A stretch of 8,085 bases of DNA from a virus (taxonomy: Duplodnaviria > Heunggongvirae > Uroviricota > Caudoviricetes). The position numbers were made by a program, and so were the translations under genes. Below, one piece after another: positions 1,641-6,359 of the stretch (positions are counted from its first letter, which is position 1; every line of letters begins with the position of its first letter). The notes under the pieces were generated by a model, which did not search any database, was not told the DNA's origin, and saw nothing but the letters and a program-made list of their open reading frames with translations. The stretch lies in IMG/VR virus record IMGVR_UViG_2534682338_000005; one strand, written 5' to 3'.

Positions 1641-4112
1641 TTAAGAATCAGCCTGACTCGGGATCAGTTTTTGCCAGATAGCTGAAACGTATTTTGCCTG
1701 GTAACGGGCGTCATCAAGTGCATTATGGCGCTCACCTTCGAATGGAATAGCCGTTCTGGCATCGAAGTCTATGGCTTTCCCCAGCTCAACGATTGTGCGT
1801 ACATCGCGATCGTTGTAGTAACGCCACGGGCAGGGGATCCCCTGCCGTTCGTATGAACGGCGCAAAATCGTGTTGTCGAAGTTGGCTCCATTTCCCCAGA
1901 CATGAACAAAAAATTCACCGGAGTTTTCGTCGATAAATTCCCGCAATTGTAACAGTGCATCATCTAACGGGATTTCATCGGTCATAATGGCAGATTGCGC
2001 TTCGCGTGATTGTTTAAGCCACCATTTAATGGTGTCCCGATCAATGACTCCGCCAGCAGTTTCCAGATCGATAGTCTTACTAAATTCCGGTCCCATATCT
2101 CCGGTTTGCGGATCGAAAAATATTGCACCTATTGAGATAATCGGGGCATCGGGATTTTTTCCCATGGTTTCAAGGTCGATCATCAGATGAATCCCCGCTC
2201 TGCTGGTGGATGTGATTTCGTGATGACCGTTCACCTTAATTGAGTGATCTGCCGTCTCGCCAGTTTCATTATCGCTATTGTGATGCTGATTGCCGCCAGT
2301 GTTCTCCTTGTGTGGATGTTCAGCGCCTTCCATTTCCTCCGGATCATCTTCCTGAACTTCAACCTGATACTCTTCATCGAATGTTTCTTGGTATGTTGCG
2401 TCGCCCATCACCGCGCCACAATCAGGGCAGTTGCCGCCGCCGGTCTGACCGCAGGCGGTGCAGACTTTTTCCACTTCCTGTTGCGCCACTGGTTCAGGCT
2501 GTTTCGTTTCTGGCTCGTTTTGTAACGCATTTGTGCTGTTTTGTTCCGCTTTTTGGTAGTTCCGTTCCGATTCATGCTGGTTCTGGTTCACAGAATCGCG
2601 GGTCTGGATCCCCTTAACCCATTTCGGATCATTCGGGTCACTAATCTCTTCAACAAATTCACCACGTGATGCAGCAAGCAACTTATCGGCGTCAGGCTGG
2701 CTGATATTGGCTGCCTGCATAATTTTGTTTACTTCGTCAGCGGTAACTTTTATCGGCTCTGGTTGTTCTGAATCTTCAGCGGTATCTACATTTTGCGGTA
2801 AGCCCGTGTATGTGCCATTTTTTCGGGCAAAATATTCTTCTTTTGTGATTTCAGTGGCGCCAGCAGCCAGTGCCTTATCCAGACCAGAAAGTTTGTTTGC
2901 GCGACCGTATTTTTCTCCGTCCTTATCTGCGAAGAGGAAATAGAACGGCCCCTCACGCTCTACAGATGGTTCAGCTTCCGGCGCGGTTTCATTTTTTGGG
3001 ATATCAGATACCTCAGTTTCCACTGCATCAGTTTGTGTTTCTGATGACTGGAGAACATCAACAGTGCCCAGGTCTGTTTCTTCATTCTCAAACACGCCCT
3101 TTGTCGTCAGGTATTCGCAGATATATTTGTTCAGTGCTATGGGATCTTTGTGAATGTCGATCGGACGCTCACGGACAAGGCCAAAAATAGTCTGGCGGTC
3201 GTAGCGAAGGGCATCAGGCTGTTTGCGCATTGATGCCGAGATACGCTTCCAGTCTTCGCGGTCGTTGTCGATAACTTCTTTTTTTGCCCAGCGATGGATG
3301 CTGCCGTCAATGTTTCCGGCATCCACATCACCAGGCCAGAGAGCGTAGGCCAGTTCGTCATCCAGTGTTTTCCATGTCTGCTTGTATTCGCGATGAATGG
3401 CAGCAATGACCGGGCTGATTTTTCCTGTTGAATTTTCAGTGTACTGTTGATTGGCTCTGGCGCGGGCGAGATCAACAACAGACGTGTATTTTCCGGTTTC
3501 CTTGCGTTCACCTTCGCGACGTTTTTTCCAGATGCGCATCTCTGCCTGAATTTCGGGCCATTTAGCACCAGGAATACATTTATGCTTAACCCACCCAATG
3601 GCGTGCAACTTAAGCTCCGGATACATGGCGTTAACTTCTGGCATTTTCATCAACGCTTCAACGATATGTCCGTCGAATGTTGCCATGTCTTCCTGCAACA
3701 ATTCCTGTGCGCTAATAACCATATCAACGGTGATGTTTTCACATGTGTCGAACTTAACCATGACAGCGTTCTGTACTTCAGGGGCCAGCTTGTCAAAAGT
3801 GACGTTCATCGGATCGGATTCAGTCTCAACCGGGACAAAAGAAGCAGACTCCTCATCCCAGCGGTTTTCCTGCATATATTCAGCATCCCATGAATCGAGG
3901 GCAGGGCGGGGTATGCCAGGTTTATCCTCGCAGACAATAAATTTATAAGCGCAGTCCTGAGCAGCCGGATAATGTTCCAGGAACTGCCAGTGAAATTTTG
4001 CTCGAGCACGGCGTTCGTCGCCAGCTTCAATGGCTGTGGCTACAGCCACAGCGCCTTCTTCCCTTGTTGCCAGTTCGTCAGGAATAGCGGCGCAAATAAA
4101 GACTTTACTCAT
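1641..4112 (-). CDS. Large prophage exonuclease-like protein (annotated in relatives as exodeoxyribonuclease VIII-like); C-terminal DEDDh/DnaQ-like 3'-5' exonuclease domain, central zinc ribbon, acidic linker
   Basis: 823-codon ORF, ATG at 4110-4112 with GAGG 10 nt upstream, stop TAA at 1641-1643. C-terminal ~180 aa carry DEDDh motifs: Exo I MIDLETMG (encoded ~2160-2181), Exo II FFVHVWGNGANFDNTIL, Exo III ERHNALDDARYQAKY. Central CTACGQTGGGNCPDCGAV is a C-x2-C...C-x2-C zinc ribbon (~2406-2460), flanked by acidic low-complexity sequence. Sits where lambdoid phages carry exo; likely the intact form of what is truncated as ydfE in K-12 Qin. Confidence 0.85.
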   Translation of the reverse strand: MSKVFICAAIPDELATREEGAVAVATAIEAGDERRARAKFHWQFLEHYPAAQDCAYKFIVCEDKPGIPRPALDSWDAEYMQENRWDEESASFVPVETESDPMNVTFDKLAPEVQNAVMVKFDTCENITVDMVISAQELLQEDMATFDGHIVEALMKMPEVNAMYPELKLHAIGWVKHKCIPGAKWPEIQAEMRIWKKRREGERKETGKYTSVVDLARARANQQYTENSTGKISPVIAAIHREYKQTWKTLDDELAYALWPGDVDAGNIDGSIHRWAKKEVIDNDREDWKRISASMRKQPDALRYDRQTIFGLVRERPIDIHKDPIALNKYICEYLTTKGVFENEETDLGTVDVLQSSETQTDAVETEVSDIPKNETAPEAEPSVEREGPFYFLFADKDGEKYGRANKLSGLDKALAAGATEITKEEYFARKNGTYTGLPQNVDTAEDSEQPEPIKVTADEVNKIMQAANISQPDADKLLAASRGEFVEEISDPNDPKWVKGIQTRDSVNQNQHESERNYQKAEQNSTNALQNEPETKQPEPVAQQEVEKVCTACGQTGGGNCPDCGAVMGDATYQETFDEEYQVEVQEDDPEEMEGAEHPHKENTGGNQHHNSDNETGETADHSIKVNGHHEITSTSRAGIHLMIDLETMGKNPDAPIISIGAIFFDPQTGDMGPEFSKTIDLETAGGVIDRDTIKWWLKQSREAQSAIMTDEIPLDDALLQLREFIDENSGEFFVHVWGNGANFDNTILRRSYERQGIPCPWRYYNDRDVRTIVELGKAIDFDARTAIPFEGERHNALDDARYQAKYVSAIWQKLIPSQADS

Positions 4113-4205
4113 TTTGTTTTAACCTCATGACAGATTTAAGGATGAACAAATCCCTGCCATTGCTGGCATATAAGAATGAAACCGGATATTTATTACGGAA
4201 CTGTT

Positions 4206-4397
4206 TTAAAGACCTGCCGGGATTTCGATATTATCCTGGTGAATAACTTTATCGACCGGGTAACAGTTACCGGGAATTTTCTGTTCGGTTGCTGCAGTCA
4301 TACACTCCTGCATTGTCCTGTGAACACTGACTGCAATATCAACTGGCTCTCCGGAAACAAGAAAAACTGTCAGAACAAGCGCAAATGCTGAATTCAT
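4206..4397 (-). CDS. ydfD: YdfD-like small protein with N-terminal hydrophobic/TM segment (Qin prophage lysis-associated protein family)
   Basis: 63-aa ORF (MNSAFALVLTVFLVSGEPVD...), ATG at 4395-4397 preceded by AAGGA with 8-nt spacer. Its start overlaps the dicB stop in an ATGA arrangement (4394-4397), the same 4-nt overlap and 63-aa size as dicB-ydfD in K-12. Longer ORF-track start at 4451 rejected. Confidence 0.8.
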   Translation of the reverse strand: MNSAFALVLTVFLVSGEPVDIAVSVHRTMQECMTAATEQKIPGNCYPVDKVIHQDNIEIPAGL

Positions 4398-4582
4398 TGT
4401 GCACATCCTTTTGGCATCAGACGTAAACGAGCCAGCATTGAAACAATGCATATTTTATTTAATAGCTCCCGTTCTTGTTTTCTCTTGTTAATGGCATCTT
4501 CAGTAAATACAGGGTTACTGATAGTGACACCAATTTCAAAACAACCTTCAGACGTATTAACGTTTGGTAATAACGTTTTCAT
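4394..4582 (-). CDS. dicB: DicB cell-division inhibitor (MinC-dependent FtsZ-ring inhibitor, Kil analog)
   Basis: 62-aa ORF MKTLLPNVNTSEGCFEIGVTISNPVF...LMPKGCAQ, matching my recollection of E. coli Qin DicB in length and sequence. ATG at 4580-4582 preceded by GAGGA with 7-nt spacer. Located downstream of DicF in the leftward early operon. ORF-track start at 4687 rejected (no RBS). Confidence 0.9.
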   Translation of the reverse strand: MKTLLPNVNTSEGCFEIGVTISNPVFTEDAINKRKQERELLNKICIVSMLARLRLMPKGCAQ

Positions 4583-4751
4583 TATCGCGTCCTCAACAAT
4601 GAATTTTGTGATGCAGTGCCTGGTGCCTCCAGGTGACGTTAACCAGTTAACAATTAACGCCGGATACAGAGAATCCACCCATAACACTGTTTTTGGTTTT
4701 AACTGTTCCGCGTGCGCTTAGCCGCATTCACCGCATCACAAAATTCACTTT

Positions 4752-4794
4752 AAAAACGGCGGCAGAGCAGTCACGGAGTAAAACTGATACCGCC
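4752..4794 (-). terminator. Intrinsic terminator forming the DicF 3' end
   Basis: On the minus strand, GGCGG (4790-4794) pairs with CCGCC (4758-4762) around an internally structured loop, followed directly by a 5-U run (4752-4756). Confidence 0.7.
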
Positions 4795-4809
4795 AAACGT
4801 CACCAGAAA
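4752..4809 (-). ncRNA. dicF: DicF small RNA (Hfq-dependent antisense regulator of ftsZ and other mRNAs)
   Basis: Minus-strand sequence TTTCTGGTGACGTTTGGCGGTATCAGTTTTACTCCGTGACTGCTCTGCCGCCGTTTTT matches my recollection of the ~53-nt DicF RNA and ends in its terminator hairpin plus U-run. Position between ydfC-like and dicB is as in the Qin dicB operon. Ends are approximate (+/- 3 nt). Confidence 0.8.
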
Positions 4810-5084
4810 ATTGATAACAGAGGGCGTTGCAGCGGGGTTGTCACTTAAGCGTATGGTCAACCTGACAACTCGGTGTCCTCAACGGGGAAGGAATAACCCC
4901 GCCATACTTACCGCCGCGCCATTTCGCGGGTTGCCACAACCGGAAGCGCACGGTCGAATTAAATTTAACGACACCGTACAGTGAGACGAACTTCGCCGTG
5001 CGCTTTCGTGTTGTGTGCCTGCTTTTAACCACGTCAGGCGAGGTGGTATCCTTCTTATTCCGAATAACCAAGAAGGAAATCTAT

Positions 5085-5285
5085 ATGACTAAAGAAGAAT
5101 TTGTCTCTTATATTTTTGATAAAACGGTTGAAATGTATGCCGCTACTTACGGGTCCTGTAATCCTCTGAATAAACCAGAGGGGAAAGATGATTTCGACAA
5201 AATTTACCGCTTCTTGGAGGACCGCTATATCAAAAGGTTAGAGGACGCAGGGATCAAATCCCCAGTGAAGTCACCATTGTCCTGA
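5085..5285 (+). CDS. Hypothetical small acidic protein (66 aa), convergent to the leftward operon; candidate only
   Basis: ATG at 5085-5087 preceded by a strong SD AAGGA (5073-5077) with 7-nt spacer; ORF MTKEEFVSYIFDKTVEMYAATYGSC...KSPLS. AT-rich coding sequence next to a GC-rich structured region. 3' end overlaps the ydfB/C-like 3' end by 32 bp on the opposite strand. No homolog recognised and no clear promoter. Confidence 0.3.
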   Translation: MTKEEFVSYIFDKTVEMYAATYGSCNPLNKPEGKDDFDKIYRFLEDRYIKRLEDAGIKSPVKSPLS

Positions 5286-5619
5286 GAACTTGCAGGACGT
5301 CATGATCGTAACTTCCATCCAAACCGCGACGGCAAATTGCTTCTCGTATTACCGGAAGCAGTTCGCTGGAAATCTCGGTGCATATTTCACCTGATAATAC
5401 GCCTGGCTCAAGTGAGAATATTGGTGAACTTACGGTCTTGGTCTCGACAGTTTCAGAGTCAGTGCCAACATTATAAAGCTCAACGAAAGCGGTCTTGATT
5501 TTCCGGGCCAGATCTTTTGCTGGCTCGCTTGCAATATCTTTCCCGATTTCTCGCAGCACAGAATGCAATGTATGAGCTGCTGTTTTCTGTACATCAGACG
5601 GTAAATCTTTAAATTCCAT
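5254..5619 (-). CDS. YdfB/YdfC-like prophage protein (single 121-aa ORF spanning what is split as ydfB + ydfC in K-12 Qin)
   Basis: ORF with ATG at 5617-5619 (MEFKDLPSDVQ...) preceded by GAGG with 6-nt spacer; a further upstream ATG (5629-5631) overlaps the ydfA-like stop (TGATG) but lacks an SD. Stop TGA at 5254-5256. Sits at the ydfB-ydfC position after ydfA-like; total span (~366 bp) matches the ydfB+ydfC span I recall. Confidence 0.7.
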   Translation of the reverse strand: MEFKDLPSDVQKTAAHTLHSVLREIGKDIASEPAKDLARKIKTAFVELYNVGTDSETVETKTVSSPIFSLEPGVLSGEICTEISSELLPVIREAICRRGLDGSYDHDVLQVLRTMVTSLGI

Positions 5620-5630
5620 CGTCAGCCTCA

Positions 5631-5783
5631 TCAGTCAGTGTTTCTGGCTAACCAGCAACGCGCGCCAGATTCGGTTTTAAACGTTTTGCTTTTGGTATAT
5701 GTCATCGCGGTGAACGTACCGTCCTGGTTGGGGAACACGCCACATACCAGAGATTCGCTGTTGCCAAGATCGATAGTATCCAT
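5631..5783 (-). CDS. ydfA: YdfA-like small prophage protein (DUF1391-type)
   Basis: 50-aa ORF MDTIDLGNSESLVCGVFPNQDGTFTAMTYTKSKTFKTESGARCWLARNTD. ATG at 5781-5783 preceded by GAGG with 5-nt spacer. First gene downstream of the operator/promoter region that follows the repressor gene, the position of ydfA in Qin. ORF-track start at 5837 rejected. Confidence 0.8.
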   Translation of the reverse strand: MDTIDLGNSESLVCGVFPNQDGTFTAMTYTKSKTFKTESGARCWLARNTD

Positions 5784-5951: not shown

Positions 5952-6359
5952 TTATTTTATTGATTTATTTTTACGCGCTTTAAGCATTTCTTCGAAGAGT
6001 TTGTTGAAGTTTTCTACTCTTGCGCGCATTTCAGACAGCAAGGCTTCCTGCTCGGAAGATGGAAGAGCATCGAATAATTCGATCAATTCTTTGTGGTTGG
6101 GAGTTAGCTCTGTTTCCACATGAAGTTCTTGTGCAGGCACTGGTGCCTTGTCTTCGTCACCAAACATTAGCCATGTAGGTGAGCACTTCAGAGCATCCGC
6201 TAAAGCAAACAATCGTTTTCCGACTGGCTGGGTTTCGTCTCTTTCCCATTGTGAAATTGTGACGTGAGCAACTCCAGCGAGGCGCGCAGCTTCTCGTTGT
6301 GTTAAGCGTAATTCTTTTCGTCGCGCCAGAACTCGCTGGCCTAGGGTTCTTGTATCCAT
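5952..6359 (-). CDS. dicA: DicA-like HTH (XRE-family) prophage repressor, CI functional analog
   Basis: 135-aa ORF, ATG at 6357-6359, stop TAA at 5952-5954. N-terminal HTH_XRE signature (LRLTQREAARLAGVAHVTISQWERDETQP), and the C-terminal segment CSPTWLMFGDEDK...EMRARVENFNKLFEEMLKARK resembles E. coli DicA as I recall it. Divergent from the Cro-like dicC with operators between them. Confidence 0.88.
   Translation of the reverse strand: MDTRTLGQRVLARRKELRLTQREAARLAGVAHVTISQWERDETQPVGKRLFALADALKCSPTWLMFGDEDKAPVPAQELHVETELTPNHKELIELFDALPSSEQEALLSEMRARVENFNKLFEEMLKARKNKSIK

Follow-up and report, generated by a model that had tools for sequence, protein, structure and literature searches.

Whether a short reading frame that runs against nearly all of its neighbours is a gene is the question raised by the stretch of viral DNA analysed here, 8,085 nucleotides of IMG/VR record IMGVR_UViG_2534682338_000005 (Caudoviricetes), referred to below as the window. 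It represents the integrase-to-replication arm of a lambdoid prophage of the Qin / mEp460 type. The frame in question, here called gene A, lies on the plus strand at 5085-5285, stop codon included; it opens with an ATG at 5085, closes with a TGA ending at 5285 and specifies in 66 codons a small protein that reads MTKEEFVSYIFDKTVEMY...PVKSPLS. It had been proposed, from the letters alone, as either an unannotated small protein or a chance open reading frame (ORF) in the precursor region of the DicF RNA. Much of this original prediction was exact on reading the sequence, namely the position and length of the frame, the Shine-Dalgarno (SD) motif AAGGA at 5073-5077 (plus strand) with its 7-nt spacer (5078-5084) to the ATG, the tail-to-tail overlap of 32 bp (5254-5285) with a minus-strand gene, gene B, whose stop codon occupies 5254-5256, and the leftward surroundings, all annotated genes between 2 and 6359 other than gene A being carried by the minus strand. 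The AT-rich contrast that had been noted is real but modest, the GC content being 0.41 in gene A, 0.52 in the 235 bp upstream, 0.46 downstream and 0.46 in the whole window.

Gene A is almost certainly a real protein-coding gene of lambdoid prophages. The length and the SD motif of its frame are by themselves not beyond chance: the window holds 22 ORFs of at least 66 aa that start with ATG, where mononucleotide shuffles give 5.8 +/- 2.3, and a good many of them are shadows cast on the opposite strand by real genes. What sets gene A above chance is conservation. Protein searches recovered full-length homologues at 98, 89, 88, 73, 57 and 54% identity, with the frame intact in all of them, and a HMMER search added a 73-aa relative (E value 1e-11). 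In codon alignments of five diverged copies (Nei-Gojobori) the ratio of non-synonymous to synonymous substitution rates (dN/dS) was 0.11-0.29 in each pair, with dS saturating in this comparison, and the substitutions cluster at third codon positions. The frame is the only one of the six that is free of stops in all five homologues tested. Moreover, purifying selection is codon-periodic across the 56 codons that lie outside the overlap with gene B, and the taxa in which it acts comprise Escherichia, Enterobacter, Cedecea, Shigella phage SfII and Edwardsiella phage EPP-1. The start context is kept even in the distant homologues, that is in SfII, where the frame is still open at 29% identity to the window, and in the SfII-type copy of EPP-1; the SD stretch AAGGAAAT is retained in the E. 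coli-type, L003-type and SfII homologues (loci other than the window are given by such L numbers).

Relatives with a broken frame were also sought. Among 76 loci compared, which hold 23 DNA alleles of gene A, the only broken copies were four with an insertion sequence (IS2 in L007, IS1 in L074, L075 and L076) and one with a premature stop two codons from the end. The insertions are found at L007:5001-5288, L074:2501-2569, L075:2501-2551 and L076:1957-2007; the IS2 end follows codon 37 of gene A and IS1 follows codons 15-16, in both orientations. These hits could reflect either an AT-rich target of IS1 or selection against the gene. A 95-aa version of gene A with a GTG start (4998-5285, plus strand) was rejected, as its N-terminal extension is not conserved and the Prokaryotic Genome Annotation Pipeline (PGAP) uses the ATG at 5085. 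This extension, taken from 4998 in the program-made ORF list, overlaps the conserved upstream element described below. It is also contained in some fragmentary database proteins (116-117 aa).

The association with DicF did not hold. Comparison of the window with E. coli K-12 by blastn gave 98.3% identity over 3346-5026, a segment that takes in the genes for the exonuclease, YdfD and DicB, dicF itself and the 220 bp or so that precede it, nothing over 5027-5639, and 76% from 5640. From this gap we infer that genes B and A form a cassette of 613 bp (5027-5639) with no counterpart in the Qin prophage of K-12, where ydfB-ydfC are found instead, and that gene A lies outside the DicF-proximal segment; the ydfC-dicF spacer in which it had been placed ends short of it. 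Its neighbour, taken for a ydfB/C-like gene, is an unrelated gene of 121 aa, and BLASTP of the gene B product against YdfB and YdfC of K-12 gave no alignment at E<=100. In addition, dicF and dicB are absent around gene A in most of the other loci that have it (L003, L004, L012, L015, SfII and EPP-1), and K-12 has dicF and lacks gene A. These comparisons indicate that gene A is independent of DicF. The small-protein alternative is thus supported both by purifying selection and by occurrence in prophages without dicF or dicB, and the same loci, with the conserved frame, contradict a chance ORF in the DicF precursor. On the minus strand, a 76-aa ORF (4841-5071) covers the sequence upstream of dicF and matches PHROG 8854 (E 2e-27); as K-12 has its non-coding ydfC-dicF spacer at this place, with 98% identity, PHROG 8854 probably arose from false gene calls across the DicF precursor region.

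The position of gene A is one that is well known from other lambdoid phages. In lambda, sieB (34482-35036, plus strand) abuts N (35037-35438, minus strand) tail to tail, and the sieB gene of P22 converges with gene 24; an opposite-strand convergent arrangement of A and B is found in the window and in eight other backbones. Upstream of gene A lies an element (5009-5047) of the pattern GTGCCTGyCTTTTmACCACnTCAGGCnnGGTGG, which in the window reads GTGCCTGCTTTTAACCACGTCAGGCGAGGTGG. From 5014 to 5047 it matches lambda 34394-34428 at 88.6% and P22 29650-29684 at 91.4%, with 6 nt between the P22 copy and the curated sieB promoter that follows it, and the element was found in 96 phage records. Consensus PL-like promoters occur immediately upstream of the partner gene in L003 and L015. 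The alignments place gene A in the classic sieB accessory slot, behind the element that precedes sieB in both lambda and P22. SieB itself is a hydrophobic, membrane-associated protein of about 190 aa. The product of gene A fails to show such hydrophobicity (66 aa, grand average of hydropathy -0.68, maximum 19-residue Kyte-Doolittle value 0.31), and no homology to SieB was found, Pfam, NCBIfam and PADLOC being empty and PHROG 34441, a family without assigned function, the sole PHROG match.

The second constant feature of gene A is its partner. Gene B (5254-5619, minus strand) is predicted to encode an N-terminal helical hairpin, a disordered linker and a C-terminal domain (C-domain) of about 50 aa (roughly 5257-5415). 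The 32 bp at 5254-5285 code on both strands, for the tail PVKSPLS of A and the tail TMVTSLGI of B, each followed by its stop codon. The program-made ORF of gene B starts at 5631 (125 aa) and the PGAP call at 5619 (121 aa). Homologues share the 121-aa start, MEFKDLP, and in some of them a different 16-aa N-terminal extension (MKTGMIRTITLEDGDV) is present.

Each intact gene A is convergent with a minus-strand partner, the overlap being 32-56 bp, and this partner follows the repressor gene either immediately or after one intervening gene. Conservation alongside gene A is confined to roughly the final 50 residues of the partner. The window-type C-domain (...ISSELLPVIREAI.RRGLDG.YDHDVLQVLRTMVTSLGI) is combined with the window-type N-terminal domain (N-domain) in E. 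coli, Salmonella and Enterobacter (the window, L012, L013 and L077). In L003 and L004, which carry a window-type A, it is joined to an unrelated N-domain (E 5e-7 for the C-domain of L003). In a Cedecea prophage (L005) it begins at its own ATG behind a GGAGAG SD motif and shows coding selection (proportions of non-synonymous and synonymous differences, pN 0.23 vs pS 0.78), and the whole block of about 375 bp sits between cro-like and cII-like genes. Gene 36 of Shigella phage SfII encodes 63 aa that share 29% identity with A (E 6e-6); it has the SD motif and the MTKEE start of gene A and is accompanied by a stand-alone convergent ORF of 68 aa that is homologous to the C-domain of B (E 0.002, ISSELL motif, 39-bp overlap). 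Edwardsiella phage EPP-1 carries an SfII-type A (E 4e-18) and a 121-aa partner which unites a C-domain of the SfII type (E 1e-9) with an N-domain of the L003 type (E 3e-15). A natural control is provided by Enterobacter kobei L078, which shares the backbone and the N-domain of B with Enterobacter asburiae L077. It keeps the counterparts of window positions 4998-5039 and 5473-5619 and is without 5040-5472; B has another C-terminus there and gene A is absent, so that an inner exchangeable unit can be drawn at about 5040-5472.

These loci (the window, L003/L004, Cedecea, SfII, EPP-1 and L077 vs L078) show that the subtype of A and the subtype of the C-domain always occur together, with N-domains of B that are exchangeable or absent. 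Gene A and the C-domain of about 50 aa form a small mobile unit placed opposite the early-left operon (the PL or dicB-promoter operon). Its mobility resembles that of a moron: the unit is found with DicA-type and with S24/LexA-type repressors, with different integrases and, in Cedecea, at the site between cro-like and cII-like genes.

Other frames were seen at these loci. In the stand-alone C-domain homologue of Cedecea (L005:3568-3897, minus strand) TGC has replaced the TGA stop, and the frame continues for 109 codons, entirely antisense to gene A; of the two, gene callers took only A. The 68-aa ORF of SfII is not annotated (L100:1431-1637, minus strand; KC736978 about 28147-28353, convergent with SfII_36) and is probably a gene missed in that annotation. 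A convergent 76-aa ORF occupies the position of A in L078 (L078:2739-2969, minus strand, uncalled, 131-bp overlap) and a convergent 81-aa ORF is called in L079 (L079:2769-3014, minus strand, 26-bp overlap) behind a strong TAAGGAG SD motif; both face a B-like gene with the same N-domain and a different C-terminus, and the slot of gene A may hold alternative cargo pairs. These two ORFs and the 63-aa partner of L015 were considered as family members and rejected, since no homology could be detected among the three, nor between any of them and A or B.

Signals that could drive gene A are found close to its start. The candidate promoter is an extended -10 sequence, TGgTATCCT (5044-5052, plus strand), about 35 nt upstream of the ATG. 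Across eight diverged loci the letters G-T-G-n-T-A are invariant, which gives the pattern TGnTAYYCT; the motif is kept as TGaTACCCT in the transposed Cedecea block and as TGgTATTGT in L078, despite the different ORF downstream. A possible but weak -35 sequence, TTAACC (5025-5030, plus strand), agrees with TTGACA at 4/6 positions and is 16 nt upstream of the candidate -10. Two plus-strand hairpins are predicted in the leader, one inside the slot element (5028-5032 pairing with 5043-5047) and a second (5049-5077) in which an anti-SD arm (5049-5056) pairs with the SD arm (5070-5077). The predicted leader structure has a minimum free energy of -17.9 kcal/mol (z -2.7), and RNAalifold gave -12.1 kcal/mol for the plus strand vs -6.2 for the minus strand. 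Four pairs of the second hairpin are changed on both sides, as was also the case in 26 of 500 shuffles, so that the covariation control is weak; this hairpin is not predicted in Cedecea or L015. The mRNA would contain it only with a transcription start upstream of the candidate -10. By analogy with P22, in which a 105-nt cis-antisense RNA, sas, controls the translation of sieB (PMC12197685), the complementary structure of the minus strand could be a sas-like RNA. In L015 a terminator-like hairpin (TAGGCTATGCCTA followed by a T-run; L015:2307-2319, plus strand) lies past the 63-aa partner gene and its PL-like promoter, and a gene A transcript could there be antisense to the entire partner mRNA.

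The reading that we consider probable is that gene A and the C-domain of B are a mobile convergent unit of the sieB slot, independent of DicF, in which A would be expressed in the lysogen and would act as partner of the C-domain. Gene A would be transcribed separately, the conserved extended -10 being the best promoter candidate, and its product would appear under repression of the early-left operon, i.e. in the lysogen. Derepression of the operon would send leftward transcription through gene A and silence it, possibly with the help of a sas-like antisense RNA cut from the transcript, so that A and B would be reciprocally expressed. The A protein, an acidic helical hairpin, would bind the helical C-domain of B and modulate or neutralise it, and the output may be the control of early phage development or the exclusion of other phages. 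Lysogen expression and convergent silencing are proposed by analogy with sieB/sas and with prophage genes antisense to lytic operons; genes with their own promoter in that orientation are typical prophage accessory loci (PMC7067206). Taken by itself, lysogen-type accessory expression of gene A is suggested by this analogy only tentatively, with chances that we put a little below even, and a direct partnership of the A and B proteins seems rather unlikely. It is a distinctly unlikely extension of this reading that A and the C-domain constitute an undescribed two-component lambdoid switch, with cognate pairing that serves as an exclusion, abortive-infection or developmental checkpoint. Control by the PL repressor together with antisense or collision effects would then set the reciprocal expression, and an effector domain would have been grafted onto varied N-terminal carriers, as in polymorphic effector-immunity cassettes.

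Several observations weigh against the reading that we favour. A strict sigma-70 scan calls no promoter upstream of gene A, leaving the -10 and -35 candidates uncalled. Lambda and P22 are without the TGnTATCCT motif, and the candidate -10 overlaps the 5' arm of the predicted hairpin that would sequester the SD motif. Scanning of the window gave no intrinsic terminator downstream of gene A, and none was found there in L003 or L005 either. Polymorphism among near-identical E. coli copies of gene A looks close to neutral (11 non-synonymous or nonsense changes vs 5 synonymous), and within the overlap three E. coli variants change or truncate A and are silent in B; together these suggest relaxed short-term constraint, with little constraint on the C-terminal tail of A. 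In addition, the overlap alone is enough to keep A and the C-terminus of B together, and their linkage is therefore no proof of an interaction between the proteins. Finally, gene A has no homology to any characterised family in Pfam, NCBIfam, PADLOC, PDB or BFVD.

Among the alternatives, a toxin-antidote or abortive-infection pair, with a small toxic or effector C-domain neutralised by A or the reverse, is unlikely; it would be built like the polymorphic effector-immunity cassettes in which N-domains are exchangeable. The strict covariation of A and C-domain subtypes with N-domains swapped or absent, the replacement of A by another convergent ORF where the C-terminus differs, the seat of the pair in what is an abortive-infection slot (sieB) and the independent disruption of gene A by IS1 or IS2 in 4 of the 76 loci all agree with it. 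The linkage is nevertheless explained by the overlap alone, and IS1 may simply favour the AT-rich sequence in which the insertions lie. Moreover, PADLOC, Pfam and NCBIfam returned no match, both proteins lack hydrophobic character and any recognisable enzymatic fold, and a convergent layout is atypical of protein-protein toxin-antitoxin pairs.

It is also improbable that the plus-strand transcript serves mainly as an antisense RNA which regulates B and the early-left operon in cis, with coding a secondary role. Such a role has lambdoid precedents in OOP (PMC7067206) and sas (PMC12197685), and it is consistent with the conserved 3' overlap of 32-56 bp, with the lack of a terminator after gene A in the window and with the hairpin of L015, up to which the RNA of gene A could cover the whole partner gene. 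An RNA-only role cannot, however, explain codon-periodic selection over the 56 non-overlapping codons, nor does the conserved SD and ATG context of gene A fit it. As an added layer an antisense role is compatible with the mobile lysogenic unit proposed above.

Expression of gene A after induction or infection, for instance from an early-activated promoter and to the benefit of phage development or counter-defence instead of the lysogen, is very unlikely. The gene is retained in the functional temperate phages mEp460_ev081, SfII and EPP-1 (PMC10448788), and its product is small, acidic and helical like many phage proteins of host takeover and anti-defence; but strong early-left transcription would meet it head-on during lytic growth, its orientation and slot match those of the lysogen-expressed sieB, and no late or early activator site was identified for it. 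The weakest alternative, an accidental open stretch antisense to the dicB-operon transcript (the DicF precursor) from which no protein is made, could draw on the excess of long antisense ORFs in the window (22 vs about 6 in shuffles), on the failure of the strict scan to pass a promoter or terminator and on near-neutral short-term polymorphism, but is extremely improbable and effectively refuted by the comparative data, given a dN/dS of 0.11-0.29 at saturating dS in the only frame open in all homologues, conservation at loci without dicF (the Cedecea copy lying between cro-like and cII-like genes), K-12 identity upstream of dicF that ends at 5026, short of gene A, and distant homologues in SfII (29%) and EPP-1 that share the start context.

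The AlphaFold2 model of gene A is a helical hairpin (H3-22 and H31-54) with a floppy tail (mean predicted local distance difference test score, pLDDT, 82.8). That of gene B has two helical hairpins and a disordered linker, at a mean pLDDT of 58, so that the helical nature of the C-domain is predicted with low confidence. Both proteins are soluble and acidic and are without a transmembrane segment. A Foldseek search with the gene A model against PDB and BFVD gave zero matches at E<=0.001, as is to be expected of a bare helical hairpin, and a sequence-profile search of PDB gave nothing below E 0.46. With gene A, Pfam returned nothing but a sub-threshold Zn_ribbon_16 (E 0.04), and NCBIfam and PADLOC had zero matches for gene A, gene B or their homologues. 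In the window only DicF reached the gathering score of Rfam, with nothing at E<=1 in 4850-5450.

The ORF is already in the databases as a hypothetical protein, and the description of it as unannotated does not stand. RefSeq/PGAP lists the gene A product as WP_000159335.1, with an identical protein in E. coli GE3 and E. coli B REL606, where the gene is ECB_RS08150 (NC_012967.1, complement 1624621-1624821); the sequence also matches BL21-derived strains. Residues 1-66 match positions 1-66 of 66 of PHROG 34441 (E 1.5e-50), a profile that the distant members P0018 and P0022 match as well. Phage mEp460_ev081, a functional temperate phage (PMC10448788), carries the gene as VUF53565.1 and is, with SfII and EPP-1, one of three isolated temperate phages that have it. 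Of 5426 complete E. coli genomes, 398 carry gene A. When 1.84 billion representative proteins were searched exhaustively with HMMER, 10 of them matched at E<=1e-10, and scans of genomes, viruses and metagenome contigs returned almost only near-identical copies of the E. coli type; the SfII and EPP-1 relatives were reached only via the upstream DNA element. Literature searches for the accession and the peptide of gene A gave no match. Near-identical prophage regions also occur in metagenome-assembled genomes labelled Veillonella parvula, 'Proteobacteria bacterium' and Geobacteraceae (L009, L010 and L011), most likely through binning contamination.

On the minus strand the window further contains an integrase gene (2-1297), an excisionase-like gene (1317-1568), the exonuclease gene (1641-4112), ydfD (4206-4397), dicB (4394-4582), the DicF RNA (4757-4808; Rfam 72.5 bits), a DUF1391/YdfA gene (5631-5783) and the gene of a DicA-like repressor (5952-6359); gene B is listed as WP_001320327.1 and PHROG 33007. 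Cro-like, ydaT-like and replication genes are on the plus strand.

With these results gene A is settled as a real gene and a misleading link to DicF is removed. Gene A is locked to the matching domain of about 50 aa of its convergent neighbour on backbones that range from E. coli to Edwardsiella. The identical protein of REL606 and the cultivable temperate phages with the gene (mEp460_ev081, SfII and EPP-1) make tests of expression and function cheap with strains that already exist.

Known systems close to this arrangement include the dicA-ydfABC-dicF-dicB operon of Qin in K-12. The window shares with it DicF, DicB, YdfD, the DUF1391 protein YdfA and a DicA-like repressor, but carries B and A where K-12 has ydfB and ydfC, with no homology between them. 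Gene A recalls prophage morons in being reversed within a one-directional early operon, in its somewhat lower GC content and in its candidate conserved promoter (PMC7067206); unlike morons, it is followed by no terminator that was found and its promoter is only a candidate, and its unit includes part of the coding sequence of the neighbour, so that it is not a self-contained insertion. The overlap of the A and B 3' ends by tens of nucleotides resembles that of the lambda OOP RNA with cII (PMC7067206) and of 3'-overlapping type I toxin-antitoxin pairs, whereas A and B are both protein-coding and under purifying selection and neither is a small hydrophobic toxin of the type I kind. Type II toxin-antitoxin and known defence systems differ in that A and B are convergent and have no toxin, antitoxin or defence domain in PADLOC, Pfam or NCBIfam.

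Gene A differs from sieB in its product, which is soluble, acidic and of 66 aa vs 184-192 aa, with no hydrophobic segment and no similarity to SieB in sequence or fold, and in its overlap and covariation with the C-terminal domain of the partner, which are not known for sieB. In P22 the curated promoter of sieB comes after the shared element, where the window already has the ribosome-binding site of gene A. P22 sieB has its own promoter and is under antisense RNA control from the PL direction (PMC12197685). As in lambda and P22, gene A stands opposite the early-left operon, convergent with the first gene of the PL operon (N in lambda, gene 24 in P22), and just behind a shared element of 35-45 nt; if it and the C-domain are indeed an exclusion or checkpoint module, they would represent a new type of cargo for this classic lambdoid accessory locus.

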